DNA of 64,000 nt from Anaerolineae bacterium. Its GTDB lineage: Bacteria > Chloroflexota > Anaerolineae > S140-20. Under the pieces are notes generated by a model. The model ran no database searches. It was not told where the DNA came from and saw only the letters and a list, made by a program, of their open reading frames with translations. The stretch spans positions 53,031 to 117,030 of the forward strand of contig JALUTT010000092.1 in NCBI GenBank assembly GCA_027021705.1. Reading direction: 5' to 3'. This document shows, one piece after another, positions 4,694 through 55,681 of the stretch. Within the stretch, counting starts at the first letter, position 1; the number at the start of each line of letters is the position of its first letter. Position numbers and translations under genes: made by a program.

Positions 4694-4721
4694 AAGAGGA
4701 AGAGCAGGAGGAGGTAGCCCT

Positions 4722-7010: not shown

Positions 7011-7023
7011 CAGACGCGCCGAG

Positions 7024-7218
7024 GGGTGGTCTCCCGCCGAGGCGTGCCATCGCTCCGCCACCTGTCGGACGTGGACCATAAGGCTGCACGGGGAGGCCCT
7101 CTTAACCTCGGCCGGAATGGGAATTCCGGCCTGCGGGGCAGCTCGCCGGGTTTGGCTCCCTTGGCCTGTGGAACGTCCGGGTAGGATCGAGTGACCGACG
7201 TCCCGTGGGAGACCACCC
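7024..7218. other. Long nested stem-loop region between acsB and acsD
   Basis: Nested complementary arms 7024-7037/7205-7218, 7066-7072/7173-7179, 7090-7098/7154-7161, 7110-7118/7123-7131. Confidence 0.55.
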
Positions 7219-7458
7219 GACGGAGAGGGTGGGGGACGTTCTCGGTATGGTGTCCCCTTCCCTCCCCGTCTGGGACGGCCCTCCTCTTCCTCTCTTCCAG
7301 GTTGAGGTGAGCTGCAATCCGTGAATTCGTTCGGGATTCGTTGACTGGGTGCCGATGGAGCGACCCGCAGGTCGCCCGTAGGCACAGAGTTTAGCCGGTG
7401 CTGTATCGCACCTCCAAGCCCATCCAGACGAGAGACCGGAAATACGCAGGAGTGAGCT

Positions 7459-8442
7459 ATGCCTCTCGAAATTCCGAAAGACAAATGGCCCGGTTCCGTT
7501 CGCACCATCACCATCGGGGCCACCCCCGAGGAGGGGGGGACCCGCGCCTGTACCGTCACCGTCGGGGGGGAGACGACGATGCCCTTCCTCCACTTTGAGG
7601 GCGAGATTCCCCACCGACCGGTGGTGGCCATCGAGATCCGAGACCGCCGGCCCGACGATTGGTCCCCGCTGCTCCTGGAGACCTGGGGGGAGGTGGTGAA
7701 CGACCCGGCCGCCTGGGCCAAAGCGGCCGAGGAGGCCGGCGCCGACCTGATCCAGCTCTCCCTCAGCCTGACCGACGGCGACGGGGAGACCACCACCCCC
7801 GAGGCCGCCGTCGCCGCCGTCCGGGCGGTGCTTCAGGCCAGCGGGCTGCCGCTGATGGTCTTCGGGCCCGGCCAGGCCGAGGTGGACAACCAACTGCTGG
7901 TCGCGGTGGCCGAGGCAACCGCCGGGGAACGGCTGGTGCTGGGCATCTGCGAGGACAAGAACTACCGCACCATCGTCGCCACGGCGATGGCCAACGGCCA
8001 CCTGGTCAACGCCCGCACCCCGATGGACGTCAATCTGGCCAAGCAGCTCAACATCCTCATCAGCGATATGGGCTTTCCCCTCGACCGCATCCTGATGGAC
8101 CCGACCACAGCCGCCCTGGGCTACGGCATCGAGTACGGCTTCTCCGCGATGGAACGGCTGCGCCTGGCCGCGCTCCAGGGGGATGCCATGACCCAGTTCC
8201 CGATGCTCGTCACCCCCGGCTTCGAGGCCTGGAAGACCAAAGAGGCCAAAGTCGGTGAGGAGGTGCCGGCCGAGTGGGGCGACTGGCTGGAGCGGGCCGT
8301 CCATTGGGAGACCCTCACCGCCGTTACCCTGCTGGAGGCCGGGGCCGACATCCTCGTCCTCCGCCATCCCGAGAGCGTGCGCCGGGTCAAGGCTGCCATT
8401 GACGACCTGATGACCGTGCGCGAAGTGGAAGCAGTGGCGTGA
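7459..8442 (+). CDS. acsD: Corrinoid iron-sulfur protein small subunit
   Basis: VGGETTMPF, DVNLAKQLN, LGYGIEY, AGADILVLRHP. Confidence 0.95.
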   Translation: MPLEIPKDKWPGSVRTITIGATPEEGGTRACTVTVGGETTMPFLHFEGEIPHRPVVAIEIRDRRPDDWSPLLLETWGEVVNDPAAWAKAAEEAGADLIQLSLSLTDGDGETTTPEAAVAAVRAVLQASGLPLMVFGPGQAEVDNQLLVAVAEATAGERLVLGICEDKNYRTIVATAMANGHLVNARTPMDVNLAKQLNILISDMGFPLDRILMDPTTAALGYGIEYGFSAMERLRLAALQGDAMTQFPMLVTPGFEAWKTKEAKVGEEVPAEWGDWLERAVHWETLTAVTLLEAGADILVLRHPESVRRVKAAIDDLMTVREVEAVA

Positions 8443-8457
8443 TAAGGAGACAGCGCT

Positions 8458-9801
8458 ATGGCCCTGACGGGAATCCAGATCTACAAGCTTCTGCCCAAGA
8501 CCAACTGCAAGGATTGCGGCTTCCCCACCTGCCTGGCTTTCGCCATGAAGCTGGCCGCCAAACAGGTGGAACTCTCCGCTTGCCCCCACATCAGCGAGGA
8601 GGCCAAGGCGGTCCTCGCCGAGTCCGCCTCTCCGCCCATCCGGCTGGTGACCCTCAAGGCCGATGGTTACGAGGTCAAGGCGGGCAACGAGGTGGTCCTC
8701 TTCCGCCACGAGAAGAAGTTCTACCACAAGCCTGGCTTCTTCATCCGGGTGCGTGATGATGCCTCCTTGGACCAGATCAGGGAGAGGGTAGCCGCCACCG
8801 ATGCCTACACTGTGAACTACGTGGGGATGGACCTGACGCTGGACGGCTTCGCTGTGGAGTCGGCCTCCGGCGACCCGACCACCTTCTCCCAGGCGATCAG
8901 CGCGGTCCGGGCCGTCAGCCAACGCCCCCTCATCCTGATGAGCCGGGACCCGGGGGTGATGGCGGCCGGCCTCCAGGCAGTGAATGGTGAGGCCCCCCTC
9001 ATCTACGCCGCCGACGCCGACAACTGGGAGGCGATGGCCGACCTGGCCAAGCAGCACCAGGCTCCCCTGGCCGTCTTCGCCGACTCCCTGGAGGGGCTGG
9101 CCGACCTGACCCAGAAGATCAAGGCCAAAGGTGTGGAGGATATGGTCCTGGACCACGGGGCGCGGGACCTGGGCACATCCCTTGCCCGCAACACCGTGAT
9201 CCGCCGCCTGGCCCTGAAGAAGACCTTCCGTCCCCTGGGCTATCCCATCATCGCCTTCCCCGGCGACGCCGGCGATGCAGCCTGGGAAGCGATCTTGGCC
9301 GCCCACGCCGTCGCCAAGTACGCCGGTTTCATCGTCCTGGACCACACCGCGCCGGAGATGCTCTACCCGCTGCTGGTCCTGCGGGAGAACATCTACACCG
9401 ACCCGCAGAAGCCAATCCAGGTCCAGCCCGGCCTCTACGAGATCAACGACCCCTCGCCGGAGGACCCGGTCCTGGCGACCACCAACTTCAGCATCACCTA
9501 CTTCAGCGTAGCCAATGAGGTGGAAGGGGCCGGCCTGCCCGCCTGGCTCCTGGTGACCGATGCCGAGGGGATGAGCGTCCTCACCGCCTGGGCGGCGGGC
9601 AAGTTCGACGCCGAGCGCATCGCCAAGGATGTCCGGCGCTTCCACGTCCCCGACAAGGTCCATCGCAAGCGGATCGTCATCCCCGGCCACGTGGCGGTCA
9701 TCTCCGGGGAGCTGGAGGAAGAGCTGCCCGACTGGGAGGTGCGCGTTGGCCCTCGGGAGGCGGTGGACCTGCCCACCTATATGAAAGAGGCCCTCGTGTG
9801 A
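8458..9801 (+). CDS. acsC: Corrinoid iron-sulfur protein large subunit
   Basis: LPKTNCKDCGFPTCLAFA...CP; TTNFSITYF; SVLTAWAAGKF. Confidence 0.96.
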   Translation: MALTGIQIYKLLPKTNCKDCGFPTCLAFAMKLAAKQVELSACPHISEEAKAVLAESASPPIRLVTLKADGYEVKAGNEVVLFRHEKKFYHKPGFFIRVRDDASLDQIRERVAATDAYTVNYVGMDLTLDGFAVESASGDPTTFSQAISAVRAVSQRPLILMSRDPGVMAAGLQAVNGEAPLIYAADADNWEAMADLAKQHQAPLAVFADSLEGLADLTQKIKAKGVEDMVLDHGARDLGTSLARNTVIRRLALKKTFRPLGYPIIAFPGDAGDAAWEAILAAHAVAKYAGFIVLDHTAPEMLYPLLVLRENIYTDPQKPIQVQPGLYEINDPSPEDPVLATTNFSITYFSVANEVEGAGLPAWLLVTDAEGMSVLTAWAAGKFDAERIAKDVRRFHVPDKVHRKRIVIPGHVAVISGELEEELPDWEVRVGPREAVDLPTYMKEALV

Positions 9802-9805
9802 CCCT

Positions 9806-11722
9806 ATGGCTGAACACCTCGTCCAGTTCGACGGTAGAGAACCGGTGCGCGTGCCCACGGGCACGCTGCTGATCGAGGCAGCCCGGCTGGCCGGGGTGGA
9901 GATCCTCCAACCCTGCGGCGGTCAGGGACGGTGTGGCCGCTGTGCTGTCCAGGTGGTTAACGGTGACGTGCGCCGCCGCAGCACCCTGCGCCTCTCGCCC
10001 GAGGACGTGGCCCAGGGCTATGCCCTGGCCTGCCAGTCGGTGGTCGAGGGAGATGTCACCGTCATCGTGCCGCCCCAGGAGAAGCTGGAGCGGCGGCTGA
10101 CCACCGATCGCACCGTCGCCGAGGTCACCGTCCCGGCCGGCTACGACCCCCAGACCGCCCAGACCATCCGCCGGATCGCCCTCACCCTCCCGCCCCCCAG
10201 CCTGGACGACCAGACGGACGACTGGAGCCGCCTCCAGACGGCCCTCCGGCGGCAGGCCGGCATCGCCGAGGTCCAGATCTCCCTGCCGCTCCTGCGGCGC
10301 ATCGGGCCGGTGCTGCGGGAGGGGGCGTGGCGGGTGACGGCGGTCCTGGACACGATGGCCTGGGACTGCCCCGGCTGTCCCGCCCGTCTGATTGACCTGC
10401 GCCCCGGCCACGAGCCGGAGGATGCCCCCCTGTGGGGAGCCGCCGTGGACGTGGGCACCACCACCGTCACCGTCTGGCTGGTGGACCTGCTGACCGGTCA
10501 GGTGCGGGCTCAGGTGGCCGAGTACAACCGCCAGATCACCCGGGGCGAGGACGTCATCTCCCGCATCATCTACGCCAGCAAGAACAACGGCGGCGAGGAG
10601 ATGCGGGCCCTGGCCTTGGAGACCATCAACGAGCTGCTGGACCGGGCCTGCAAGCGGACCCGGGCCAAGCCGGAGGAGATCGTCAAGGTCACCATCGCCG
10701 GCAACAGCACGATGATGCACCTGCTCCTGGGCATCCCGGCCGAGAGCATCCGTCTGACGCCTTTCGTGACGGTGGTGAACCATGTGCCCACCCTCCGCGC
10801 CCAGGAGGTCGGCCTGCTCGCCCACCCCGAGGCGACGGTGGACTGCCTGCCGGGCGTCGCCAGCTACGTCGGGGCCGACATCACGGCCGGCGTCCTCGCC
10901 GCCGGCCTGGACGAGACCGATCAGGTTACCCTCTTCATGGACATCGGCACCAACGGGGAGACGGTGCTGGGGACCCGCGACTGGCTGGTCACCTGCGCAT
11001 GCTCGGCCGGCCCCGCCTTCGAGGGCGCCGGCGTCCTCCACGGGATGCGGGCCACCCGGGGGGCCATCGAGGAGGTCTGGATCAACAGCCAGACCTACGA
11101 GCCCACCTACCGGGTCATCGGGAACGTCCCGCCCCGGGGCCTGTGCGGCAGCGGCCTCATCTCCCTACTGGCCGAACTCTTCCTGACCGGGGTCCTGGAC
11201 CGGCGGGGGAACTTCAACGAGAGCCTGGACACCCCCCGCATCCGCAAGGGGGCCCACGGCCTGGAGTACGTGGTCGCCTGGGGGGAGGAGACGGCCACCG
11301 GCCGGGAGATCGTCCTGACGCGGGTGGACGTGGACAACCTGATGCGGGCCAAGGCGGCCATCTACGCTGGCTTCACCGTCCTGGCCGACCAGGTGGGCGT
11401 TCCCCTGGAGACGGTCGAGCAGGTGCTCATCGGCGGGGCTTTCGGCAAGTACATCAACGTGGAGAAGGCGGTGGAGATCGGCCTGCTGCCGGACATGCCC
11501 TGGGACCGCTTCGAGTTCCTGGGCAACACCTCGGTGCGGGGGGCCTACCTGGCCCTGCTGGACTGGCAGGCCCGGCGGCGCATCAAGGAGATCGCCGCCC
11601 GGATGACCTACATCGAGCTCTCCGCCGACAACACCTTCTACGAAGCTTTTATGTCCGCCCTCTTCCTGCCCCACACCGAGCTCTCCCGCTTCCCCACGGT
11701 AGAAGCAGCGCTGGGGGGGTGA
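9806..11722 (+). CDS. acsV: Reductive activator of corrinoid protein (RACo; 2Fe-2S + ASKHA)
   Basis: PCGGQGRCGRC, DVGTTT, DIGTNGE, SAGPAFEG, GLCGSG. Confidence 0.92.
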   Translation: MAEHLVQFDGREPVRVPTGTLLIEAARLAGVEILQPCGGQGRCGRCAVQVVNGDVRRRSTLRLSPEDVAQGYALACQSVVEGDVTVIVPPQEKLERRLTTDRTVAEVTVPAGYDPQTAQTIRRIALTLPPPSLDDQTDDWSRLQTALRRQAGIAEVQISLPLLRRIGPVLREGAWRVTAVLDTMAWDCPGCPARLIDLRPGHEPEDAPLWGAAVDVGTTTVTVWLVDLLTGQVRAQVAEYNRQITRGEDVISRIIYASKNNGGEEMRALALETINELLDRACKRTRAKPEEIVKVTIAGNSTMMHLLLGIPAESIRLTPFVTVVNHVPTLRAQEVGLLAHPEATVDCLPGVASYVGADITAGVLAAGLDETDQVTLFMDIGTNGETVLGTRDWLVTCACSAGPAFEGAGVLHGMRATRGAIEEVWINSQTYEPTYRVIGNVPPRGLCGSGLISLLAELFLTGVLDRRGNFNESLDTPRIRKGAHGLEYVVAWGEETATGREIVLTRVDVDNLMRAKAAIYAGFTVLADQVGVPLETVEQVLIGGAFGKYINVEKAVEIGLLPDMPWDRFEFLGNTSVRGAYLALLDWQARRRIKEIAARMTYIELSADNTFYEAFMSALFLPHTELSRFPTVEAALGG

Positions 11723-11732
11723 GGGGATGGGA

Positions 11733-11815
11733 CAACGAATGGAGAACCGAGTCAACGAATTGGGGCGTCTGCCGCATCCGTTTATCTGTCCAGAATTCGT
11801 TGACTTCATTCGCTA
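11733..11815. repeat. ACGAAT/ATTCGT inverted-repeat element
   Basis: Perfect IR AGTCAACGAATT 11750-11761 / AATTCGTTGACT 11794-11805 plus outer arms. Confidence 0.65.
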
Positions 11816-11849
11816 ACCAAGCCGCCATCGGCGAGGAGGGATCGCACCT

Positions 11850-12788
11850 ATGTACATCATCGGCGAGAATATCCACATCGTCTCGGAGAAGGTCAAGCGG
11901 GCGCTCAAGGAGCGTGATGCCAAGTTCTTCCAGGACCTGGCCGTCCGCCAGGTGGAGGCCGGCGCTCAGGCCCTCGACATCAACCTGGGCCCGCGCAAGC
12001 GGGACTGGGAGGAGGTCTTCCCCTGGATCGTGAAGACGCTGGAGGCCGTTGTAGACGTGCCCCTCTGCATTGACAGCACCAATGTCCTGGGCATCGAGGC
12101 GGCCCTGAAGACGATCACCAAAGCCCAGCCCATCGTCAACTCCACCTCGGCGGAGCCGGAACGCTTGGAGAAGGTGCCGCCCCTGGCCAAGAAGTACAAC
12201 GCCCGGCTCATCGCCCTGACAATGGGCAAGAGCGGCATCCCCGTCTCCGCCGACGAGCGGGTGAGCATCGCCCTGGAGGTCCTGATCCCGCGCATGCTGG
12301 AGATTGACTTCCCCATCGAGGACCTGATCCTCGACCCGCTGATCCTGACCGTCTCAGGATGCCAGGAGTACTGCCCGGAGGCCATCGAGGCGGTGCGGAC
12401 GCTGCAGTATGCCTGGGACCCGCCGCCGGCCGTCTCGGTGGGGCTCTCCAACGTCTCCAACCGGGTGCCGGCCGAGAACCGCTCCCTCATCAACCGCGTC
12501 TACTGTGCCATGCTGATGGGCGCCGGCCTGAAGATGATGATCGCCAACCCCTTGGACGAAAAGCTCAAGGAGGTCATCCGCATCATCGAGGAGCGAGACG
12601 ACAGCACGCCGGTAGGACGCCTCTACCTCAAGATCCACGACCGCATCGCCGCGATGGAGGAGCCCTCCGCCGAGGACGTGGATATGGACGACCCCGAGCA
12701 GGTCGCCATCTGGAAGACGGTCCAGATCCTGCTCAACAAAGTGATCTACGCGGACTCCTACCTGCGTCAGGAGACCATCTCTGCCTAA
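11850..12788 (+). CDS. acsE: Methyltetrahydrofolate:corrinoid methyltransferase
   Basis: Pterin-binding barrel IIGENI, CIDSTN, LDPL, GLSNVS; operon context. Confidence 0.9.
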   Translation: MYIIGENIHIVSEKVKRALKERDAKFFQDLAVRQVEAGAQALDINLGPRKRDWEEVFPWIVKTLEAVVDVPLCIDSTNVLGIEAALKTITKAQPIVNSTSAEPERLEKVPPLAKKYNARLIALTMGKSGIPVSADERVSIALEVLIPRMLEIDFPIEDLILDPLILTVSGCQEYCPEAIEAVRTLQYAWDPPPAVSVGLSNVSNRVPAENRSLINRVYCAMLMGAGLKMMIANPLDEKLKEVIRIIEERDDSTPVGRLYLKIHDRIAAMEEPSAEDVDMDDPEQVAIWKTVQILLNKVIYADSYLRQETISA

Positions 12789-12819
12789 GGAAAGGACGGG
12801 GAGAGGAGGAACTGAAACG

Positions 12820-13608
12820 GTGACCACGACCATCGCCCTCGCCGGGAAAGGGGGGACCGGCAAGACGACCATCGCTTGTATGGTGATCAAGTACCTGCTC
12901 CGGCATCGGCCCGGCACCATCCTGGCCATTGATGCCGACCCCAGCAGCAACCTGCATATGGTCCTGGGGATGGACCTGGAGTGGACCATCGGCGAGATCC
13001 GCGAGGAGATGCTCCAGCAGGTCCAGAGCTCCGTGGCGGTCGGTGCCGGCGTGCTGCCGGGCGGCATGTCCAAGCGGGAGTACCTGGACTACGAGGTCCG
13101 CTCCTCGCTGGTGGAAGGGGACCGCGTGGACCTGATCGCGATGGGGCGACCCGAAGGCCCCGGTTGCTACTGCGCGGTGAACCACCTCCTGCGCCAGATC
13201 GTGGACGGCATCAGCCGCCACTACGACTTCGTGGTCATTGACAACGAGGCCGGGATGGAGCACCTGAGCCGGCGCACGACCCGCGACGTGGACTACCTGT
13301 TGATCGTGAGCGACCCCACCCAGCGGGGCATCGTGGCCGCTGAGCGGATCGCGGAACTGGGCAAAGAACTGGACATTCACATCAACCACACCTATCTGGT
13401 CCTCAACCGGCTGGTGGGGCCGATCCCGCCTCCCCTCCAGGCGCGGATCGAGGCCCTGGGGATCCCCCTGCTGGGGGTCGTCCCGGCCGACAGCCAGGTG
13501 ACCACCTTCGAGTTCAGCGGGCGCCCGCTGATCGAGATGGGGGACGATTCACCGGTCTACCAGGCTGTGGCCGCGATGATGGCCCAGATCCTTGGTCCAG
13601 CTACCTGA
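12820..13608 (+). CDS. cooC: CooC/AcsF nickel-insertion ATPase
   Basis: GKGGTGKTT, DADP, GCYC, DNEAGMEHLSR. Confidence 0.93.
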   Translation: MTTTIALAGKGGTGKTTIACMVIKYLLRHRPGTILAIDADPSSNLHMVLGMDLEWTIGEIREEMLQQVQSSVAVGAGVLPGGMSKREYLDYEVRSSLVEGDRVDLIAMGRPEGPGCYCAVNHLLRQIVDGISRHYDFVVIDNEAGMEHLSRRTTRDVDYLLIVSDPTQRGIVAAERIAELGKELDIHINHTYLVLNRLVGPIPPPLQARIEALGIPLLGVVPADSQVTTFEFSGRPLIEMGDDSPVYQAVAAMMAQILGPAT

Positions 13609-13614
13609 CCGTTG

Positions 13615-13719
13615 TCACCCTCCTGCAGGTCACCGGTCGGGGGCGCTTTCAGCCCCGATGGGCTATTTGAGGCACGGTTTCGCGTCGGAAACGCGCCTAA
13701 CCTGCGGGAGGGTGAACAG
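13615..13719. repeat. Family A ~115 bp hairpin element, copy 1
   Basis: Near-identical to 52244-52364 and 55759-55875; arms ACCCTCC(C/T)GCAGGT...ACCTGCGGGAGGGT. Confidence 0.85.
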
Positions 13720-13752
13720 TCGGTTAACTTTCGACACGTGGGAGAAGACACG

Positions 13753-16700
13753 ATGGGCGACAACGGACGGAGTGCACGGGGTGACGGGTTGCCGGTCGGC
13801 GCAGTGATGGTCATCGGCGGCGGGATCGCCGGGATGCAGGCTTCCCTCGACCTGGCCGACGCCGGCTACAAGGTCTACCTGGTGGAGAAGAAATCGGCCA
13901 TCGGCGGCCACATGGCCCAACTGGACAAGACCTTCCCCACCAACGACTGCGCCATGTGCACCATCTCCCCCAAGCTGGTGGAGGTGGGCCGTCACCGCAA
14001 CATCGAACTCCTCACCAACGCCGAGGTCCTGGACCTGCAGGGTGAGGCCGGGAACTTCACCGTCACGGTGCGCCGGAACCCCCGCTTCATTGACCCGGAG
14101 AAGTGCACCGCCTGCGGTGACTGCGCCAAGGTCTGCCCCGTCACCCTGCCCGACCTCTTCAACGAGGGGCTCTCCCAGCGCCGGGCCGCCTACAAGCTCT
14201 ACCCCCAAGCGACCCCCAACGCCTACGCCATCGAGAAGCGGGGAACCGCTCCCTGTCGGGATGCCTGTCCGGCGGGGCAGCGGGCTCAGGGCTACATCGC
14301 CCTCATCCGCGAGGGCCGCTACGAGGAGGCCCTACGGGTCATCAAAGAGGACAACCCCTTCCCCGCCATCTGCGGGCGCATCTGCAACCATCGCTGCGAG
14401 GAGGCTTGCAACCGGGGGCGGGTGGACGAGCCCGTCAACATCCACGTCCTGAAGCGGTTCGTGACCGATTGGGTCTACAGCCGCCCCCGCGTCCCCCCGG
14501 AGCCGGCGGAGCGCAAGTACCCGGAGCGGGTCGCCATCATCGGGGCCGGCCCCTGCGGCCTGACGGCGGCCCAGGACCTCTGCAAGATGGGCTACGGCGT
14601 GACCGTCTTCGAGGCGCTGCCCGTCGCTGGCGGCATGATGCGCGTCGGCGTGCCCGCCTTCCGCCTGCCCGACTGGATCATCGAGCGAGAGGTCCAGGAC
14701 ATCGTGGACCTGGGCGTGGAGCTGCGGTTGAACACCCGCGTGGAGAACCTGGACGACCTCTTCGCCCAGGGGTACAACGCCGTCCTCATCGCCGTCGGTG
14801 CCCACCGGGGCCGCAAGCTCCCCATCGAAGGGGCCGACCTGGAGGGGGTGCTGGTCAACACCGACTTCCTGCGGGAGGTGCGGCTGGGCAACCCGCCCGA
14901 CTTCTCCGGCAAGCGGGTGATGGTCCTGGGCGGCGGGAACGTGGCCGTGGACGTGGCCCGCACCGCCGTTCGGCTGGGGGCCGCCCAGGTCCACATGGCC
15001 TGTCTGGAGGAGCGGGAGACGATGCCCGCCCATCCCTGGGAGATCGAGGCCACGGAAGCTGAGGGCGTCATCCTCCATCCGGGCCGCGCCTTCAAGCGCA
15101 TCCTGGACGACGGTCACGGACGGGTGGCCGGCATCGAATGCCTCAAGGTCACCTTTATGGAGTTCGACGCCGAGGGGCGGCTGACGCTGGAGACGGAGCC
15201 CGGCTCCGAGCACGTGATCCCCTGCGACATCGTCATCTTCTCCATCGGCCAGCAGCCCGACCTCTCCTTCAACCCTTCGGAGGATGGCGTGGAGGTCACC
15301 CGGCGGGGCACCGTCGCCGTCAACCCGGAGACGCTGGCCGCCACCCGTCCGGGCGTCTTCGCCGCCGGCGACGCCATCACCGGCACCGCCTTCGTCATTG
15401 ACGCCATCGCCGCCGGCCACCGGGTCGCCCAATCCATCCACCGCTACCTGCGGGGGGAGCCGCTGGCCGAGGAGGAGAAGCCCTCCCTCCCCGTCGTGCG
15501 GATGAGCGAGGAGGAGGTCCAGGAAAAGCTCCAGGCGGGGGAGGTCCGGCCCCGCCCCCGGGTGCCCGTGGCCGAGCTGCCCGTCGCCGAGCGGGTCCGC
15601 AACTTCAACGAGGTGGAACTGGGCTACACCGAGGAGGAGGCCCGGACCGAGGCCCAGCGCTGCCTCCAGTGCGGCATCTGCTCCGAGTGCCTGAGCTGCT
15701 GGTACGAGTGCAAGGCGGGGGCCATCAACCACGACGAGGTGCCCCGCACCGAGGAGATCCGGGTGGGGGCCGTCGTCCTGGCCCCCGGCTACCAGGTCTA
15801 CCACGCCGAGCTCTCCGAGGAGTACGGCTGGGGCCGCTACCCCAACGTGGTCACCGCCCTCCAGTTCGAGCGGCTGCTGAGCGCCTCCGGCCCCACCCAC
15901 GGCCACGTCCTGCGCCCCTCCGACGGGAAGCCGGCCCGGAAGATCGCCTTCCTCCAGTGCGTCGGCTCCCGCGACCAGTCCCACGACTACTGCTCCTCCG
16001 TCTGCTGCATGTACGCGGCCAAAGAGGCGATCATGGCCCGGGAGCACGACCCCCGGGCCGAGGTCCACGTCTTCTTTATGGACACGCGGGCCTTCAGCAA
16101 GGGGTACGAGGCCTACTACCGTCGGGCCCAGGAGCAGTACGGCGTCCACTACGTCCGCTGCCGCATCTCCTCGGTCAAGGAGGACCCGGCGACCAAGAAC
16201 CTGATCCTGAAGTACGTGAGCAGCGAACCGGCGGAGGGGGAGGAGAACAGGCCGACGGGGCAGGTCCGGGAGGAAGCCTTCGACCTGGTGGTCCTCTCCG
16301 TGGGGATGGAGATCGCGCCGGAGGTGCGGGAGCTGGGCCGGCGGCTGGGCATCGAGCTGGACGACTACGGTTTCTGCCACACCGTCCAGTTCCAGCCCCT
16401 GGAGACCAGCCAGCCGGGCATCTACGCCGTCGGCCCCTTCCGGGAGCCCAAGGACATCCCGGAGACGGTGACGGAGGCCAGCGGCGCGGCGGCGCTGGCC
16501 GGCGGCCTGCTGGCCCCGGCCCGGGGGAGCCTGATCACGCCGCCCGAGTACCCGCCGGAGCGGGACGTGAGCGGTGAGGAGCCCCGCATCGGCGTCTTCG
16601 TCTGCCACTGCGGCTCCAACATCGGCGGCTTCCTCGACGTCCCCGCCGTCGCCGAGTACGCCCGGAGCCTCCCCTACGTCGTCCACGCCGAGGACAACCT

Positions 16701-18363
16701 CTACACCTGCTCCCAGGACTCCATCCGCCGCATCACCGAGAAGACGAAGGAGCTGGGGCTCAACCGGGTCGTCGTCGCCTCCTGCACCCCCCTGACCCAC
16801 GAGCCCCTCTTCCAGGACAGCATCCGCCAGGCCGGGCTCAACCCCTACCTCTTCGAGATGGCCAACATCCGCAACCAGTGCTCCTGGGTCCACTCCCACG
16901 ACCGGGAGGCAGCCACGGAGAAGGCGAAGGAGTTGGTGCGGATGGCGGTGGCCCGGGCCGCCCGGCTGGAGCCGCTGCACCGCATCACCGTGCCGGTGAC
17001 GAAGCGGGCCCTGGTCATCGGCGGGGGGGTGGCGGGGATGCACGCCGCCCTGGCCCTGGCCGAGCAGGAGATCGCCGTGGACCTGGTGGAACGGGAGGCG
17101 GAGCTGGGCGGCAACCTGCGCCACGTCCGCTACCTGCTGGAGACCCAGAACGGTCGCCTGCGGTGGCACGACGCCCGGACCTACCTGGAGGACCTGATCG
17201 CTCAAGTCACCGCCGACCCCCGCATCACCGTCCACCGGGAGACGGAGCTGGTGGAGACCCACGGCTACAAGGGGAACTTCACCTCGGTCCTGCGCACGCC
17301 GGAGAGGGAGATCACCGTTCAGCACGGGGCGACCATCGTGGCGACGGGGGCGCGGGAGTACCGGGGGCCGGAGTACGGCTACGGTCGCGACCCGCGCATC
17401 CTCACCCAGCAGGAGTTCGAGGCCCTCCTGGCAGCGGGGGAGGTCCGGCAGGGCGAAGAGGCGGTGGAGGCCCAAGAGCTGCCCCAGGACGTTGTGATGA
17501 TCCAGTGCGTGGGGCCGGCGGAGCGGTACTGTAGCCGCATCTGCTGCACGGTGGCCCTGAAGAACGCGCTGAAGCTGAAGGCGCTGAACCCCAAGGCCCG
17601 GGTCACCGTCCTCTACCGGGACCTGCGCACCTACGGCTTCAAGGAGCGGCTCTACACCGAGGCCCGGCGGACCGGCGTCCTCTTCGTCCGCTACGACGCC
17701 GACCACAAGCCCCAGGTCCGGCTGCCGGAGGGAGGGGATGGGGAGCAACCCCCGACCGACGAGCCGCTGGAGGTGCGGGTCTGGGAGCCGATGCTGGGCC
17801 GGGAGATGGTGCTGCACCCCGACCTGCTGGTGCTGAGCATGCCGATGGTGCCGGCCGAGGGGGCCGAGGAGTTGGCCAACCGGCTCAAGGTGGGGGTGGA
17901 CCTGGACGGCTGGCTGATGGAGGCCCACGTCAAGCTGCGCCCGGTGGACTTCTCCACCGAAGGGCTCTACATGGCCGGCGCAGCCCACTACCCCAAGCTG
18001 CTGGACGAGACCATCGCCCAGGCCCAGGCGGCGGCGGCGCGGGCGGCGACCATCCTGAGCCAAGACGCGCTGCCCGTGGGCGGCATCGTGGCCCAGGTGG
18101 ACCCCGAGGCCTGCGTGGGCTGCCTCACCTGCGTCCGCCTCTGCCCCTTCGGCGTCCCCCGGGTCCGAGACGACCTCACCGGCGTGGGGGCCATCGTGGG
18201 GGCGGCCTACATCGAGCCGGCCCAATGCCAGGGGTGTGGCCTCTGCGTCGCCGAGTGCCCTGCCCGCGCCATCCAGTTGATGCACTACCGCCACGAGCAG
18301 ATCGAGATCAAAGTGGCGGCGCTGCTGGAGCCCGCCGTACAAGCGATGAGGAGCATCCAATGA
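13753..18363 (+). CDS. hdrA: Large HdrA-like flavoprotein (HdrL type: two HdrA units with inserted GltD/NfnB-like NAD(P)H module)
   Basis: VIGGGIAG, LDKTFPTNDC, CGRICNHRCEEAC, IIGAGPCG, GGGNVAVD, FLQCVGSR, VFVCHCGSNI, second VIGGGVAG, terminal 2x[4Fe-4S]; ATG 13753 after GGAGAAG. Confidence 0.92.
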   Translation: MGDNGRSARGDGLPVGAVMVIGGGIAGMQASLDLADAGYKVYLVEKKSAIGGHMAQLDKTFPTNDCAMCTISPKLVEVGRHRNIELLTNAEVLDLQGEAGNFTVTVRRNPRFIDPEKCTACGDCAKVCPVTLPDLFNEGLSQRRAAYKLYPQATPNAYAIEKRGTAPCRDACPAGQRAQGYIALIREGRYEEALRVIKEDNPFPAICGRICNHRCEEACNRGRVDEPVNIHVLKRFVTDWVYSRPRVPPEPAERKYPERVAIIGAGPCGLTAAQDLCKMGYGVTVFEALPVAGGMMRVGVPAFRLPDWIIEREVQDIVDLGVELRLNTRVENLDDLFAQGYNAVLIAVGAHRGRKLPIEGADLEGVLVNTDFLREVRLGNPPDFSGKRVMVLGGGNVAVDVARTAVRLGAAQVHMACLEERETMPAHPWEIEATEAEGVILHPGRAFKRILDDGHGRVAGIECLKVTFMEFDAEGRLTLETEPGSEHVIPCDIVIFSIGQQPDLSFNPSEDGVEVTRRGTVAVNPETLAATRPGVFAAGDAITGTAFVIDAIAAGHRVAQSIHRYLRGEPLAEEEKPSLPVVRMSEEEVQEKLQAGEVRPRPRVPVAELPVAERVRNFNEVELGYTEEEARTEAQRCLQCGICSECLSCWYECKAGAINHDEVPRTEEIRVGAVVLAPGYQVYHAELSEEYGWGRYPNVVTALQFERLLSASGPTHGHVLRPSDGKPARKIAFLQCVGSRDQSHDYCSSVCCMYAAKEAIMAREHDPRAEVHVFFMDTRAFSKGYEAYYRRAQEQYGVHYVRCRISSVKEDPATKNLILKYVSSEPAEGEENRPTGQVREEAFDLVVLSVGMEIAPEVRELGRRLGIELDDYGFCHTVQFQPLETSQPGIYAVGPFREPKDIPETVTEASGAAALAGGLLAPARGSLITPPEYPPERDVSGEEPRIGVFVCHCGSNIGGFLDVPAVAEYARSLPYVVHAEDNLYTCSQDSIRRITEKTKELGLNRVVVASCTPLTHEPLFQDSIRQAGLNPYLFEMANIRNQCSWVHSHDREAATEKAKELVRMAVARAARLEPLHRITVPVTKRALVIGGGVAGMHAALALAEQEIAVDLVEREAELGGNLRHVRYLLETQNGRLRWHDARTYLEDLIAQVTADPRITVHRETELVETHGYKGNFTSVLRTPEREITVQHGATIVATGAREYRGPEYGYGRDPRILTQQEFEALLAAGEVRQGEEAVEAQELPQDVVMIQCVGPAERYCSRICCTVALKNALKLKALNPKARVTVLYRDLRTYGFKERLYTEARRTGVLFVRYDADHKPQVRLPEGGDGEQPPTDEPLEVRVWEPMLGREMVLHPDLLVLSMPMVPAEGAEELANRLKVGVDLDGWLMEAHVKLRPVDFSTEGLYMAGAAHYPKLLDETIAQAQAAAARAATILSQDALPVGGIVAQVDPEACVGCLTCVRLCPFGVPRVRDDLTGVGAIVGAAYIEPAQCQGCGLCVAECPARAIQLMHYRHEQIEIKVAALLEPAVQAMRSIQ

Positions 18364-18773
18364 CCGAGTTCACGCCGGAGATCGTCGCCTTCTGCTGTCG
18401 CCATTGTGCCTACGCTGCGGCCGACTTGGCCGGCTCGCTGCGCATCCAGTACCCGCCCAACGTCAAGGTCGTGGAAGTGCCCTGCACGGGCCGGCTGGAC
18501 ATCGTCGAGGTGCTCCACGCCTTCGAGCGGGGTGTGGACGGCGTGATGGCGGCCGGGTGACTGCCGGGCGACTGCCATTACCTGGAAGGTAATCTCAACG
18601 CCCGAAGGCGGGTCGAAACGATCAAGAAGCTGCTGGAGCAGATCGGCCTGGAGAAGGAACGGATCGAGATGTTCAACCTCTCCTCGGCCATGGGGGTCCA
18701 GTTCGCCGAGTACGCCACCGAGATGACCCGGCGCATCCGGGAACTGGGGCCGTCCCCTCTCCGTTCTCATTAG
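18360..18773 (+). CDS. mvhD: MvhD [2Fe-2S] subunit, selenocysteine at UGA 18558-18560 (137 aa)
   Basis: IVAFCCRHCAY...PCTG...GVMAAG-U-LPGDCHYLEGN...LGPSPL in one frame; overlaps hdrA stop (ATGA). Confidence 0.93.
18561..18604 (+). promoter_or_regulatory. Bacterial SECIS-like hairpin
   Basis: CGGGCG 18565-70/CGCCCG 18599-604 lower stem; ATTACC-TGGAA-GGTAAT 18577-93 apical stem-loop. Confidence 0.8.
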
Positions 18774-18823
18774 CGAATTGCAGATTGCGAATTGCAGATT
18801 GCAAATTGCAGATTGCAAGTTGC
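18773..18823. repeat. Heptamer tandem tract (RATTGCR)n
   Basis: gcgaattgcagattgcgaattgcagattgcaaattgcagattgcaagttgc. Confidence 0.9.
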
Positions 18824-18844
18824 CATCCGCCCAGGGAGGTCGTG

Positions 18845-19549
18845 ATGATCGTCGCCGAACAGAAACCACTGGAGGAGATCAAGGAACTCATCGCCGACGC
18901 CGAACGGGTGCTCATCGTCGGCTGCGGTACCTGCGTCACCGTCTGCTTCGCCGGCGGGGCCAAGGAGGCCGCCATCCTGGGCTCTACGCTCCGTATGGCT
19001 ACCCGGCTGGACGGCCACGGCAAGGCGATTGACGAGGTGACGGTGCAGCGCCAGTGTGAGTGGGAGTACATTGACCCCCTGGAGGCCCGCCTGGACGACT
19101 ATGACCTCATCCTCTCCCTGGGCTGCGGCATCGGCGTCCAGACGCTGGCCGAGCGCTTCCCCGACAAGCCGGTGGTGCCCGGCCTGAACACCGTCTTTAT
19201 GGGGCTGCCGGTAGAGCAGGGGGTGTGGGAGGAGCGCTGTCAGGCCTGCGGCGACTGCATCCTGGGCCTGACGGCCGGCATCTGCCCCATCGCCCGCTGC
19301 TCCAAGCAGTTGCTCAACGGCCCCTGTGGCGGCTCCCAGGATGGCCGCTGCGAGGTGGACGAGAGCATCCCCTGCGCCTGGCAGCTCATCTACGAGCGGG
19401 CTAAGGCCCTGGGCCGGCTGGACAAGCTGCTGGAGATCCAGCCGCCCAAGGACTGGTCCAAGAGCCGTGACGGGGGACCGCGCCGCGTCGTGCGCGAGGA
19501 CCTGCGGTTGACCCATCGGGTGGCAGAGGTGGCAGGAGGCGAGCGATGA
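18845..19549 (+). CDS. metV: Methylene-THF reductase accessory Fe-S subunit
   Basis: GCGTCVTVC, RQCE, CQACGDC, CPIARCSKQLLNGPCGG; ATG after GGGAGGT. Confidence 0.9.
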   Translation: MIVAEQKPLEEIKELIADAERVLIVGCGTCVTVCFAGGAKEAAILGSTLRMATRLDGHGKAIDEVTVQRQCEWEYIDPLEARLDDYDLILSLGCGIGVQTLAERFPDKPVVPGLNTVFMGLPVEQGVWEERCQACGDCILGLTAGICPIARCSKQLLNGPCGGSQDGRCEVDESIPCAWQLIYERAKALGRLDKLLEIQPPKDWSKSRDGGPRRVVREDLRLTHRVAEVAGGER

Positions 19550-20550
19550 TGGAGGACCGGAGCAACGGTTACAAGTCCGGGAGCAACCTGGAACGGCTCA
19601 TCCGGGCCGGCCACTTCGTCGTCACGGCGGAGTTGGGGCCGCCCAAAGGGTGGCAGCGGGAGGTGATCGAGCGCAAGGCCAAGCTGCTGCGCGGTGTGGT
19701 GGACGCCGTCAACATCACCGACAACCAGACGGCCATCGTGCGGATGTCCAGCATCGCCGCCGGCTGCATCCTGGTGGAGCTGGGGCTGGAGCCGATCATC
19801 CAGATGACCTGCCGGGATCGGAACCGGCTGGGCATCCAGAGCGACCTGCTGGGCGCAGCCGCCCTGGGCATCCGCAACGTCCTCTGCCTCACCGGGGATC
19901 ACCAGAGCTTCGGCAACCACCCCACGGCCAAGAACGTGCACGACCTCGACAGCATCCAGCTCGTCCAGATGGTCGCGCGGATGCGGGATGAGGGCATCTT
20001 CCAGTGCGGGGAGGCCATCAAGGGGGGCGGTCCGCCCTTCTTCATCGGTGCGGCGGCCAACCCCTTTGGCGATCCCTTCGAGTTCCGCCCCTACCGTCTG
20101 GCGAAGAAGGTCGCCGCTGGCGCCGACTTCATCCAGACCCAGTTGGTCTTCGACATCCCCCGCTTCAAGGAGTACATGAAGCGGGTGGTGGATATGGGCC
20201 TTCACGAGAAGGTCGCCATCCTGGCGGGGGTTGGCCCGCTCAAGAGCACAGGGATGGCCCGCTACATGCGGGACCGGGTGCCGGGGATGCGGGTGGCCGA
20301 CGAGTACGTGGAGCGGATGAAGGCGGCGGTGGCCGGCATCCCCAAGGAGGACAAGGCGGCCCGGCGTGAGGCCTGGCGGGCCGAGGGGATCAAGATCTGC
20401 GTGGAGCAGATCCAGCAGTTGCGCGAGATCGAAGGCGTCGCGGGGATTCACATCATGGCCATCGAGTGGGAAGAGGCCGTGCCGGTGATCGTCAAGGAAG
20501 CCGGCCTCTACCCGAGGCCAACCGTCGGTGAGGCGGTCCTTAAAACATAG
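19546..20550 (+). CDS. metF: Methylenetetrahydrofolate reductase
   Basis: TAELGPP, NITDNQ, CRDRNR, LTGD, AGADFIQTQ. Confidence 0.95.
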   Translation: MMEDRSNGYKSGSNLERLIRAGHFVVTAELGPPKGWQREVIERKAKLLRGVVDAVNITDNQTAIVRMSSIAAGCILVELGLEPIIQMTCRDRNRLGIQSDLLGAAALGIRNVLCLTGDHQSFGNHPTAKNVHDLDSIQLVQMVARMRDEGIFQCGEAIKGGGPPFFIGAAANPFGDPFEFRPYRLAKKVAAGADFIQTQLVFDIPRFKEYMKRVVDMGLHEKVAILAGVGPLKSTGMARYMRDRVPGMRVADEYVERMKAAVAGIPKEDKAARREAWRAEGIKICVEQIQQLREIEGVAGIHIMAIEWEEAVPVIVKEAGLYPRPTVGEAVLKT

Positions 20551-20588
20551 AGCTGTAGGACCAATACAGAGAGAACGAGGGCCTTTCT

Positions 20589-21023
20589 TCAGGCATCGGT
20601 TTCTGAGAAGGTGATGACACCCTGGGCGTTCATCGTAGCCCCTGTGTCTTTCAGCACTCGCTCAATGCGGTTCTCGGCGATCTCTGCTTCGATCTCCTCC
20701 TGGTGATCGAGATAGTAGCTGATGGCATCGTAAATCGCTGCCAGCTCGAGATGGGGATAGGCGGCCTCGATCTCCTCGGGGCTATCACCGGCCTTCCACA
20801 TCGCTGCGATAAGCCATACCGGGATGCTGGTGCCACGTAAGACAGGCCGTCCGCCTCGCACACCCTCACGCCGCACAATGTACGGGTGGTCTGTAGGATG
20901 AACTTGGGCGCGAATCAACTCTTCGGCCATTTCGTCAGGTGTGCGTCGGCTCGCACGAGCCCGCTGCACCAACAGTTCATACGTCTGCCGAGACACCTTG
21001 AGAGTCGCAACGGGTGTAACCAT
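20589..21023 (-). CDS. DUF433 antitoxin-like protein, orphan, antisense within the operon
   Basis: GGRPVLRGTSIPVW, AYPHL, AISYYLDHQEEIE; ATG 21023 after GGAGGTGG. Confidence 0.85.
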   Translation of the reverse strand: MVTPVATLKVSRQTYELLVQRARASRRTPDEMAEELIRAQVHPTDHPYIVRREGVRGGRPVLRGTSIPVWLIAAMWKAGDSPEEIEAAYPHLELAAIYDAISYYLDHQEEIEAEIAENRIERVLKDTGATMNAQGVITFSETDA

Positions 21024-21106
21024 CCCTGCCACCTCCGGGTTGACAACTGGCATCGCACGTTATCTTGAGTATAGCATAGAACCGCCGGTCCAACAACCTT
21101 GTAGCC

Positions 21107-21143
21107 TTGGTGATTACCCAACTCACCTATGGGTCATCACCGG
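21107..21143. mobile_element. Minimal family B MITE (37 bp) with 7-bp target duplication
   Basis: GGTGATTACCCA-N9-TGGGTCATCACC; TGTAGCC at 21100-21106 and 21144-21150. Confidence 0.7.
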
Positions 21144-21166
21144 TGTAGCCCCCAGTGAGGCTGAGC

Positions 21167-22573
21167 ATGGCCACAGCAACCTCTCCAACGACCGAAGTGC
21201 AAAGCCTGGCCGCGACCATCGAGCAGGCTACCGGCCAGAACGTCTACCTCTGCTACCAGTGCGTCAAGTGCAGCAGTGGCTGCCCCCTGGCCGAGCACAT
21301 GGACCTGATGCCCAACCAGGTGATGCGGGCCGTCCAGTTGGGCGATGCCGGCGTCCTGGAGTCGAAGACCATCTGGCTCTGCGCTTCCTGCCAGACCTGC
21401 ACCACCCGTTGTCCCCAAGGGCTGGACATCGCCGGGATCATGGACGCGCTGCGCATCGAGGCCCGCCGGCGCGGCATCCCCCCCGCCATCCCCGAAGTGG
21501 AGACCTTCAGCCGCCTCTTCCTCCAGGACATCCGGCTGATGGGCCGGGTCTACGAGGCCGGCCTGATGGCTGCCCTCAACCTGGCCACCAAGCAGCCGCT
21601 CAAGGATATGGCCATGGGGCTGGAGATGCTCAAGCGGGGCAAGCTCAAGCTGCTCCCCGCCTTCGTCCGCCCGCCCCGGCGGGTGAAACCCATCACCCCC
21701 GCCGACAACCAGATCGCCTACTTCCCCGGCTGCTCCCTGCACTCCACCGCCGCCGAGTACGACCAGACTACCCGGGCCGTGGCCAAGGCCCTGGGGCTGA
21801 AGCTGGTCGAGCCGCCCGGCTGGACCTGCTGCGGCTCCACGCCGGCCCACGGCACCGATCCCATCCTGGCCACCCGCCTGCCCATCCAGAACCTGGCCAT
21901 CGTCGAGCGGATGGGGCTGCCCGCGGTCACCGCGCCCTGCAGCGCCTGCTACTCCCGCTTCAGGACGGCCCTCTACGTGGTGGAACGGGAGCCGGAGATC
22001 GCCCAGGAGGTGAACCGACAGATCGGCTACACCTACCAGGACCGGGTGCGGGTGGAGCACCTCCTGGACACGCTGGTGGATCGGGTGGGGCTGGAGGCCA
22101 TTGAGAAGCGGGTGGAAAAGCCGCTCTGGGGGCTCAAGGTGGCCTGTTACTACGGCTGCCTGATCGTCCGCCCCCCTCAGGTGATGGGGAGGGCGCACCC
22201 GGAGTACCCGATGAAGATGGACCACCTGGTCCAAGCCCTGGGTGCGGAGCCGGTGGACTGGTCCTACAAGACCGATTGCTGCGGTGGGGCATTGGGGATC
22301 ACCCAGACCGCCCTGGCCCACGAGCTGACGGCCCGCATCCTGCAGAATGCCCGCGACTGTGGAGCCGACCTCATCGTTGCCATCTGTCCCCTCTGCCACG
22401 TCAACCTGGACGCCCGCCAGGCCCAGATCGGCCTGGACTTCTCGATGCCGGTCCTCTACTTCACCCAGTTGATGGCCCTGGCCTTCGGGTTGGGGGAGAA
22501 GCGGGCGGCGCTGGACAAGAATCTGGTGGACCCCCGGCCTGTCCTGGTCTACAAGGGGATCCTGGCGGCGTAG
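21167..22573 (+). CDS. Fused HdrC-HdrB heterodisulfide reductase subunit
   Basis: CYQCVKCSSGCP, CASCQTCTTRCP then YFPGC, WTCCG, YYGC, TDCCGG, CPLC. Confidence 0.92.
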   Translation: MATATSPTTEVQSLAATIEQATGQNVYLCYQCVKCSSGCPLAEHMDLMPNQVMRAVQLGDAGVLESKTIWLCASCQTCTTRCPQGLDIAGIMDALRIEARRRGIPPAIPEVETFSRLFLQDIRLMGRVYEAGLMAALNLATKQPLKDMAMGLEMLKRGKLKLLPAFVRPPRRVKPITPADNQIAYFPGCSLHSTAAEYDQTTRAVAKALGLKLVEPPGWTCCGSTPAHGTDPILATRLPIQNLAIVERMGLPAVTAPCSACYSRFRTALYVVEREPEIAQEVNRQIGYTYQDRVRVEHLLDTLVDRVGLEAIEKRVEKPLWGLKVACYYGCLIVRPPQVMGRAHPEYPMKMDHLVQALGAEPVDWSYKTDCCGGALGITQTALAHELTARILQNARDCGADLIVAICPLCHVNLDARQAQIGLDFSMPVLYFTQLMALAFGLGEKRAALDKNLVDPRPVLVYKGILAA

Positions 22574-28124: not shown

Positions 28125-28161
28125 CGGTGGCGGGGGCTGCGGGCGCTCGGGTCGGATGGGA

Positions 28162-28206
28162 GCGAGTCAGCGAGTCGGCGAGTCGGCGAGTCAGCGAGTC
28201 AGCGAG
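28162..28206. repeat. Octamer tandem tract (GCGAGTCR)n
   Basis: About 5.5 copies. Confidence 0.9.
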
Positions 28207-39124: not shown

Positions 39125-39445
39125 TTAGTCCTTGGTCCTCAGTCCTTAGTCCTCAGTCCGCCGCTAAGCCGCTAGCCGCTAGGTCGCTAGCCGCTACGCC
39201 GCTACGCCGCTCGGTCGGCGGTTGGCTACGCAGTCCTCGGTCCTCAGCCCTCGGTGCCTCCCTCTTGGTCAGGTGGTCAAGTGGTCGAGTGGTCCTCGGT
39301 CCTCGGTCCTCAGCCCTTGGTCCACAGTCCGCCGCTACGCCGCTCGGTCGGCGGTTGGCTACGCAGTCCTCGGTCCTCAGTCCTCAGTCCTTGCCCCTTG
39401 CCCCCTGCCCCTTGCCCCTTGCCCCCTGCCCCTTGCCCCTTCCTC
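39125..39445. repeat. Heptamer mosaic (GTCCTCR, GCCGCTA, CCCCTTG) overlapping trpE 3' end
   Basis: Direct reading; 39156-39247 matches 41005-41096 at 88/92. Confidence 0.9.
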
Positions 39446-41215: not shown

Positions 41216-41220
41216 CCCAT

Positions 41221-51052: not shown

Positions 51053-51105
51053 ATGCATCCGTGCATTTGTGGGATATTCGTGGACGGCGGATCGCTCCCG
51101 GGCTC

Positions 51106-55531: not shown

Positions 55532-55681
<150 letters not shown>

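Follow-up and report, generated by a model that had tools for sequence, protein, structure and literature searches.

The gene mvhD in a 64-kb stretch of an Anaerolineae bacterium genome (contig JALUTT010000092.1; this whole stretch is hereafter referred to as the window) contains an in-frame TGA at 18558–18560. We regard it as highly probable that this TGA is the selenocysteine (Sec) codon of mvhD, and that it is served by a bacterial selenocysteine insertion sequence (SECIS) hairpin located at 18565–18604 on the forward strand. A sequence-only reading had proposed a hidden MvhD selenoprotein with UGA recoding and a SECIS element. This proposal is supported by the full-length homology of the read-through product, by the Cys column at the corresponding position of its homologues, by the presence of the same TGA in at least 121 other genomes, by the agreement of the hairpin with the bacterial SECIS (bSECIS) model, and by covariation within the hairpin.

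Reading frame and protein identity

The coding sequence of mvhD runs from 18360 to 18773 on the forward strand and consists of 137 codons and a TAG stop codon (18771–18773), with Sec at codon 67 when TGA is translated as U. The ATG at 18360 overlaps the TGA stop codon of the upstream open reading frame (ORF), the 1583-aa hdrL, in the form ATGA. A Shine–Dalgarno-like GAGGAG, read from the sequence, is located 6 nt upstream of the start (18348–18353). In the ORF list based on translation table 11, the mvhD frame appears as an ORF at 18225–18560, which ends at the TGA. In the translation with TGA as U, the frame continues for 70 more codons, and the product (MTEF...AAGULPGDCHYLEGN...LGPSPLRSH) carries a single U, at residue 67. 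The ORF list and this translation confirm what had been noticed from the letters, namely that the ORF halts at 18558–18560 while the frame stays open to the TAG. The UGA lies within a direct repeat of an 11-nt unit, GCCGGGYGACT (2.3 copies; 18552–18576). The repeat derives from the codons for G-U-L-P and G-D-C, and the coding sequence itself probably accounts for it.

Judged by sequence similarity, the read-through product is a full-length MvhD/FlpD protein (the MvhD/VhuD/FrhD family; PF02662, COG1908). Its residues 8–130 correspond, across the TGA, to positions 1–123 of the 123 positions of the Pfam FlpD profile (PF02662), with an E-value of 3.4e-50 and a score of 169.6 bits against a cut-off of 22.3. 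Six distinct solved sequences of the MvhD/VhuD type also match the product within residues 1–135, with E-values from 1e-40 to 4.9e-34. The matches of 7bkb_F (1e-40), 9sw2_D (1.4e-36), 9sfi_K (2.8e-36) and 5odc_D (2.2e-35) are all nearly full length, and the alignments to the solved chains are gap-free around the U67 site. The Cys set of MvhD, namely C13, C16, C42 and C72, is present in the window protein together with U67. Furthermore, mvhD directly adjoins the gene of an HdrA-type flavoprotein (hdrL, 13612–18363), which is the neighbor that assignment to this family calls for.

One alternative is that the TGA is a true stop codon, because mvhD is a pseudogene or because a TGC or TGT was misread, so that a 66-residue fragment or nothing functional would be made. 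The end of the table-11 ORF at 18560 agrees with this alternative. However, the 70 codons beyond the TGA are conserved as well as the upstream part is, as seen from the matches that extend to the end of the Pfam profile and, among the solved structures, to residue 135. We return to this alternative below.

Residue 67 in homologues and in other genomes

In the 120 best homologues, the column corresponding to residue 67 is occupied by Cys in 116 and by W in four (P0002, P0029, P0034 and P0110). When 30 of the best homologues were aligned with the product, 29 had Cys, and the most similar, P0002 with 82% identity, had W. The four W residues are most simply explained as TGA codons that an annotation pipeline or gene caller rendered as Trp, that is, as mis-annotated selenoproteins. 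In the solved VhuD chain 9sfi_K, X (Sec) occupies the U67 column, and another X is found at column 16. The two positions agree with a review table, in which MvhD/VhuD (PF02662) appears, with two Sec, among the selenoprotein families that have been verified by experiment (PMC13188914; this and the other papers are cited from excerpts).

Contigs of one genome per species were scanned with a degenerate DNA pattern that required TGA within A-G-U-x-x-G-[DENK]-C-H-[YF]-x-x-G-N. At least 121 other loci were found to carry TGA at the equivalent of codon 67, with less than one match expected by chance according to our own estimate. In what follows, counts of Sec-type genes and loci are counts among the 121 matches listed. 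The read-through MvhD aligns over 126–137 residues in 119 of them, and the other two end at contig ends. According to the record titles, Chloroflexota account for the largest share (57), followed by Thermodesulfobacteriota (31), Bacillota (10), Myxococcota (6), Cloacimonadota (3) and Acidobacteriota (2); four phyla have one match each, and eight matches are unplaced. Thus, the alternation of Cys and TGA among orthologues, which had been suggested as a check of the selenoprotein proposal, is indeed seen: Cys prevails in the best homologues, and TGA recurs across the genomes scanned.

The history of this alternation was examined on a FastTree tree, for which the Sec/Cys column was masked (239 rows, consisting of 123 TGA-type rows, including the four with W, and 116 Cys-type rows; 125 columns). 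At least 21 changes between the Sec and Cys states were counted, five of which are forced by well-supported branches, as compared with a mean of 79 for shuffled labels; the count is rough, because 125 columns leave most forks unresolved. Repeated Sec/Cys conversions have likewise been reported for the FrhD/MvhD/VhuD family (PMC1794560, Table 1). Five of the Sec-type mvhD genes have a further in-frame TGA at codon 16, where the window gene has Cys. Codon 16 is the CxxU position, at which archaeal VhuD and BamF carry Sec.

It may be argued that the organism uses a code such as NCBI table 4 or 25, in which TGA stands for Trp or Gly, and that residue 67 is accordingly a standard amino acid instead of Sec. 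The four homologues with W at this column favor such a reading. However, 20 of the 31 Pfam-supported genes in the window, hdrL among them, are terminated by TGA, and a general reassignment of TGA is therefore excluded. In addition, the column that is Cys in nearly all of the best homologues lies within a Cys-ligand motif, where Trp or Gly is unfit, and a SECIS-type hairpin follows the codon on its 3′ side. Decoding of the TGA as Trp or Gly is thus scarcely credible, and Sec remains the preferred assignment.

Structure and energetics of the hairpin

The bacterial SECIS hairpin at 18565–18604 was characterized by its fold energy, its covariation and its fit to the bSECIS constraints. Hereafter, the U of the UGA is numbered as position 1. 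The lower stem is formed by C8–G13 with C42–G47 (18565–18570 with 18599–18604) and begins 4 nt past the UGA. The upper stem is formed by A20–C25 with G31–U36 (18577–18582 with 18588–18593). The apical loop, UGGAA, comprises U26–A30 (18583–18587) and is located 22 nt after the UGA; its U and A are able to pair, closing the loop. The two-tier hairpin with a TGGAA loop, which the sequence-only reading had placed 4 nt past the UGA, was therefore found where it had been described, with its lower stem starting at 18565.

The 40-nt hairpin has a fold energy of − 17.0 kcal/mol (z = − 3.68), which was equalled by none of 200 shuffled sequences. For a 63-nt stretch, the energy is − 24.1 kcal/mol (z = − 2.50), and 4 of 200 shuffled sequences were as good. 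The bSECIS model, as quoted in PMC13188914, demands a loop of 3–9 nt, an upper stem of 4–16 bp, a minimum free energy of − 7.5 kcal/mol or lower, a G within loop positions 1–2, and a spacing of 16–37 nt between the UGA and the loop. The window hairpin agrees with all of these constraints, the respective values being 5 nt, 6–7 bp, − 17 kcal/mol, a G at loop position 2, and 22 nt.

Conservation, covariation and codon usage in the hairpin

The 66 nt starting from the TGA were aligned for the window and the 121 matches listed (alignment A2; 122 sequences), and the alignment was gap-free. Pairing is retained in 96% of the cells of the upper stem. An exchange of bases is seen at pair 23–33, where 95 sequences have A-U, 18 have U-A, and nine have A-C. 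The U-A pair occurs exactly where Tyr74 (UAC) is replaced by Phe (UUC) and where the Gly77 codon changes from GGU to GGA. In this swap, a second and a third codon position compensate each other. The nine A-C mismatches all belong to Bacillota, and the 112 non-Bacillota sequences have standard pairs at all six positions of the upper stem. For the whole structure, none of 500 column shuffles matched the observed paired fraction or the covariation score, and when the 3′ partners were slid by 1–3 columns, the paired fraction was 25–59% as compared with the observed 80.1%; for sequences that are related to each other, such shuffle and slide controls are known to be limited, and one of the sequences tested had served to derive the structure.

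The ten Bacillota genes (L005, L055, L062, L074, L081, L083, L091, L098, L107 and L109) have the motif U-H-P-G-D-C-H-Y-V-S-G-N, and the common hairpin is not formed in them. Instead, these genes form a hairpin, GCCACUA-UGU-UAGUGGC, which lies 3 nt further upstream and represents an alternative SECIS solution at this codon.

The SECIS core of 18 nt, CAUUACCUGGAAGGUAAU, lies within the codons for His-Tyr-Leu-Glu-Gly-Asn and is nearly invariant. The codon choice at this site differs from that of the rest of the same genes in these 122 sequences. The codon of Asn78 is AAU in all 122 (47% elsewhere), that of Gly77 is GGU in 95 (23.5% elsewhere), and that of His73 is CAU in 112 (41% elsewhere). In the window, whose G + C content is 66.8%, the synonymous shares are 12.1% for CAT among His codons, 14.6% for GAA among Glu codons, 8.8% for GGT among Gly codons, and 8.5% for AAT among Asn codons (24 confident genes; 13,146 codons), and all four are among the six codons that build the upper stem and the loop of mvhD. 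The fetched loci also contain five mvhD paralogues of the Cys type, in which Gly77 is encoded by GGC or GGG and never by GGU (0/5), and Asn78 is encoded by AAC in three of the five. When one of these paralogues (L026) was folded, the hairpin was absent. The rare U-ending codons in the stem make sense only when the RNA structure is under selection.

Observations weighing against the assignment

Some of the results speak against a Sec codon served by this hairpin. One group concerns the RNA element. In the alignment of the window and the matches listed, the lower stem is paired in just 67.5% of the cells and the two middle pairs in 63.9%, and the 66-nt stretch of one relative (L039) gave a fold z of 0.01. 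The fold energy of the 121-nt context in the window is ordinary (z = − 0.50; 58 of 200 shuffles), and the SECIS claim is thus based on the local element and on how it is conserved. Rfam contains no SECIS family that corresponds to it and gave no independent model hit, and a permissive scan of 18300–18900 gave chance-level hits only (E > 1). Another result concerns the protein: the NCBIfam VhuD model matches it with an E-value of 4.4e-45 and 153 bits, under the curated equivalog cut-off of 215. A score of this kind fits a bacterial MvhD and not an archaeal VhuD equivalog.

The last group concerns the Sec machinery. No tRNA-Sec was found in the 64-kb window, in which ARAGORN made four calls and Rfam, at the gathering threshold, gave three ordinary tRNAs. 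Likewise, no Pfam match for SelA, SelB or SelD was obtained among 74 translated ORFs of the window (13 + 49 + 12). No second selenoprotein gene was recognized among those of the 126 TGA-bridged ORF pairs that were judged, the search being incomplete; the pairs judged were adjacent genes (CoaD, L21/L27, TrpG/TrpD and Mut7-C/RsfS) or off-frame ORFs, and 12 ORFs were tested against Pfam.

Several candidates were rejected in the course of these searches. The gene of an EF-Tu-type GTPase at 61708–63786 encodes EF-G. A 98-nt 'tRNA-???' called by ARAGORN at 35652–35749, with a four-base anticodon, is not a tRNA-Sec, being part of a 42/62-nt tandem repeat and lacking a tRNA match in Rfam. The surrounding region, 35413–35912, contains longer tandem repeats with periods of 42, 62 and 118 nt and 88–99% matches. 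Two DegV ORFs on the reverse strand (47587–48477 and 48481–49371) are separated by one TGA; each has a complete domain, and Sec read-through does not apply to them. These tandem DegV genes, of 296 codons each and in the same frame, lie downstream of a FakA-like kinase gene (49376–51109).

The lack of visible Sec machinery within the window would also agree with the TGA being a true stop codon. Nevertheless, that alternative leaves the sharing of the TGA by at least 121 other genomes, together with a conserved and covarying hairpin, and the rare U-ending stem codons without a reason, and we consider it very improbable. The assignment of TGA 18558–18560 as a Sec codon implies that the organism decodes Sec. 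For Anaerolineales, the use of Sec has been described in single-cell genomes, in the form of SelB and a Sec-containing formate dehydrogenase (PMC4959059).

Gene neighborhood

The genes hdrL, mvhD, metV, metF and hdrCB are arranged in this order on one strand at 13612–22573, directly downstream of the cluster for carbon monoxide dehydrogenase (CODH) and acetyl-CoA synthase (ACS). The hdrL-like gene (13612–18363, forward strand; 1583 aa) has no in-frame stop, and encodes HdrA modules together with a GltD-type NAD(P)H/FAD module in one fusion protein; Pfam gave Pyr_redox_2, Fer4_20 and Fer4, and NCBIfam gave HdrA2 (E = 1.7e-288) and GltD-family models. On the downstream side of mvhD, also on the forward strand, metV (18845–19549) encodes the zinc-ribbon subunit of methylene-tetrahydrofolate (THF) reductase (Pfam PF12225/DUF5981 'MTHFR C terminal', E = 1.8e-38), metF (19546–20550) encodes methylene-THF reductase (Pfam MTHFR, E = 3.2e-40), and hdrCB (21155–22573) encodes a fusion of a 4Fe-4S dicluster domain and two CCG domains (Pfam CCG and Fer4_17; NCBIfam HdrB, E = 5.7e-50, and HdrC, E = 3.1e-17). 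A DUF433 gene on the reverse strand (20589–21053) is located between metF and hdrCB and breaks the co-directional run. The upstream region, 2678–13608 on the forward strand, carries the Wood–Ljungdahl pathway's carbonyl branch, namely CODH, ACS, two CFeSP subunits, RACo, the methyltransferase AcsE and CooC, as assigned from the Pfam families Prismane, CdhC/ACS_CODH_B_C, CdhD (twice), RACo domains, Pterin_bind and CbiA/ParA. On the basis of these domains, the run in the window is assigned to the Moorella-type Hdr-MvhD-MetFV arrangement for methylene-THF reductase. This arrangement has been described in acetogens and in marine Anaerolineae (PMC5736913, PMC6085437).

A similar order is frequently found around the other Sec-type mvhD genes. 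In 80 flanked loci among the matches listed, MetV is encoded downstream of mvhD in 45 and MetF in 42, HdrL (at least 1300 aa aligned) is encoded upstream in 48, and HdrL, MetV and MetF occur together in 34. The order HdrL-MvhD(Sec)-MetV-MetF is seen in many genomes of Chloroflexota and Desulfobacterota. The most similar operons among the matches listed, with 65–80% amino acid identity, come from metagenome-assembled genomes of Anaerolineae/Chloroflexota and from an 'uncultured bacterium' (L073).

Short tandem repeats were also observed in this region and elsewhere in the window. The spacer between mvhD and metV contains the heptamer AATTGCA at 18776–18823 (6.9 copies; a period of 14 is better, with 94% matches). 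Similar arrays of 7–8-nt units occur in many intergenic gaps, for example AGCGAGTC at 28161–28206 (5.8 copies), CCTTGCC at 39389–39455 (9.4 copies) and ACGTAAC at 63794–63853 (8.6 copies), and further short-repeat arrays lie at 40966–41218 and 31183–31380. Longer internal tandem repeats of 99–120 nt are found at 31918–33045 in the gene of a 1046-aa NB-ARC/TPR protein (31736–34876, reverse strand). A SAM riboswitch (87 bits; 55532–55681, reverse strand) is located upstream of the gene of an archaeal-type AdoMet synthetase (PF01941; 54182–55366, reverse strand).

Possible role of residue 67

The way in which the window mvhD would be expressed and used can be outlined as follows. During translation of mvhD, the mRNA just 3′ of the UGA would fold into the hairpin at 18565–18604. 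SelB carrying Sec-tRNA(Sec) would presumably recognize the hairpin and bring Sec to the UGA, and the 137-residue MvhD would be made instead of the 66-residue fragment. Sec67 would then take the place of the first Cys in the motif G-C-x-x-G-D-C-H-Y. MvhD is predicted to be the small iron–sulfur adaptor of an HdrL-MvhD-MetV-MetF-HdrCB module, which would act as the methylene-THF reductase of the Wood–Ljungdahl pathway, probably in a flavin-based electron-bifurcating manner. The HdrA subunit appears to bring its own NAD(P)H-binding GltD-like module.

The pattern of conserved residues provides a clue to the function of position 67. In the Sec-type genes among the 121 matches listed, C13 is kept in 120, and C42 and C72 are kept in all 121. 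Cys at position 12 is found in just 75, while position 16 is Cys in 116 and Sec in five. Cys16 of MvhD, situated between the cluster and FAD, has been described as a further conserved Cys that is not a ligand (PMC13580544), and the corresponding residue of BamF is Sec19 (bioRxiv 10.64898/2026.04.10.717634). In the excerpts of PMC13518236, PMC13580544, PMC12350162, PMC6019823 and PMC6085437, we found no statement naming the cluster-ligating Cys residues of MvhD, but just the non-ligand status of Cys16. Since four Cys-type ligands are needed and few positions besides 16 are conserved, position 67 should be required for the [2Fe-2S] cluster. By elimination among the conserved Cys positions, C13, C42, U67 and C72 are most likely the ligands.

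Sec67 may also be a redox-active selenol near the cluster, with the UGA decoded as proposed and the cluster held by other residues. The non-ligand assignment of MvhD Cys16 and BamF Sec19, possibly with a disulfide or selenenylsulfide role (PMC13580544; bioRxiv 10.64898/2026.04.10.717634), lends some weight to this idea. It is set against the fact that, besides position 16, only C13, C42, U67 and C72 are kept in the Sec-type genes among the matches listed, and we consider a non-ligand Sec67 unlikely.

Taken as a whole, ligation of the MvhD [2Fe-2S] cluster by the Sec67 selenolate within an NAD(P)H-linked HdrL-MvhD-MetVF-HdrCB reductase, with the Sec form being usual in Chloroflexota that bear the Wood–Ljungdahl pathway, is offered as a tentative proposal: that all of its parts hold together is possible rather than probable. 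If it is true, the methyl branch in widespread sediment Chloroflexota would hinge on selenium supply. A selenium dependence of the pathway in this organism is plausible, and a Cys paralogue elsewhere in the genome is possible. The Sec codon also hints that the carbon fixation or acetogenesis module of this organism may need selenium. The excerpts of two single-cell papers on Chloroflexi (PMC5736913, PMC4959059) do not mention a selenium link to the methyl branch; there, Sec is mentioned just for formate dehydrogenases.

Comparison with known systems

Sec-containing members of this family have been known since the mid-2000s. In a 2006 catalogue, Sec-FrhD/MvhD/VhuD ranked third in size among the selenoprotein families of bacteria, with 19 genes, including those of Syntrophobacter, Syntrophus, Carboxydothermus, Desulfotomaculum and Moorella thermoacetica (PMC1794560). 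Four Sec-mvhD genes located beside hdrA/hdrL genes were described in Desulfobacterium autotrophicum (PMC2702500). The background statement in the sequence-only reading that Sec forms occur in VhuD of Methanococcales and in Deltaproteobacteria is borne out by PMC1794560, PMC2702500 and PMC13188914. In the literature searched, we found no paper that calls mvhD of the Chloroflexota hdr-mvhD-metVF cluster a selenoprotein. The practical consequence lies in annotation: the mvhD gene would be called as a 66-residue fragment, missed, or given Trp, as in the four database entries mentioned above, and the methylene-THF reductase module of this Wood–Ljungdahl cluster would then seem to lack an essential subunit.

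Archaeal VhuD (9sfi_K) shares its fold family with the window MvhD (E = 2.8e-36, residues 6–135), has Sec at the U67 column, and has a like role as a [2Fe-2S] adaptor that docks on HdrA (PMC13518236, PMC6019823). However, the archaeal SECIS is of another type and is located in the 3′ untranslated region (PMC13188914), a second Sec occupies column 16, where the window protein has Cys, and the partners of VhuD are a hydrogenase or a formate dehydrogenase, while the partner genes in the window are those of MetVF. BamF of the class II benzoyl-CoA reductase of Geobacter metallireducens is, like the window protein, a bacterial selenoprotein and an MvhD-homologous [2Fe-2S] adaptor (bioRxiv 10.64898/2026.04.10.717634). 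It differs in that its Sec19 is found at the N-terminal CxxC/U (column 16) and not at column 67, and in that it is more than 100 residues longer.

The Desulfobacterium autotrophicum HRM2 proteins MvhD1, MvhD2, MvhD3 and MvhD5 resemble the window case in that the Sec-MvhD gene directly follows an HdrL-type gene, the product of which is a fusion of heterodisulfide reductase and glutamate synthase (PMC2702500). The order HdrL-MvhD(Sec)-MetV-MetF is also found in the Desulfobacteria loci L039, L044 and L053, among the matches listed. On the other hand, HdrL1 and HdrL3 of HRM2 are themselves selenoproteins (PMC2702500), whereas the window hdrL lacks an in-frame stop.

In Moorella thermoacetica, HdrABC-MvhD-MetFV consists of the same subunit families as in the window and is also located beside Wood–Ljungdahl genes (PMC5736913, PMC6085437). 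The selenoproteome of this species includes FrhD, which belongs to the same family, and HdrA (PMC1794560, Table 3), and the Moorellaceae loci L074, L081 and L107 share TGA at the equivalent of codon 67. In place of the HdrA of Moorella, the window encodes an HdrL of 1583 aa that includes a GltD-like NAD(P)H module, and its HdrC and HdrB are fused. Moreover, the Moorellaceae are among the Bacillota loci whose UGU-loop hairpin is shifted by 3 nt, and their MvhD is approximately 52% identical to that of the window. The window mvhD is thus an annotation gap of the ordinary sort for the established Sec-MvhD/FrhD/VhuD family, and not a new kind of system; with the same TGA, hairpin and operon present in at least 121 species-level genomes, what is known of the family is unchanged.

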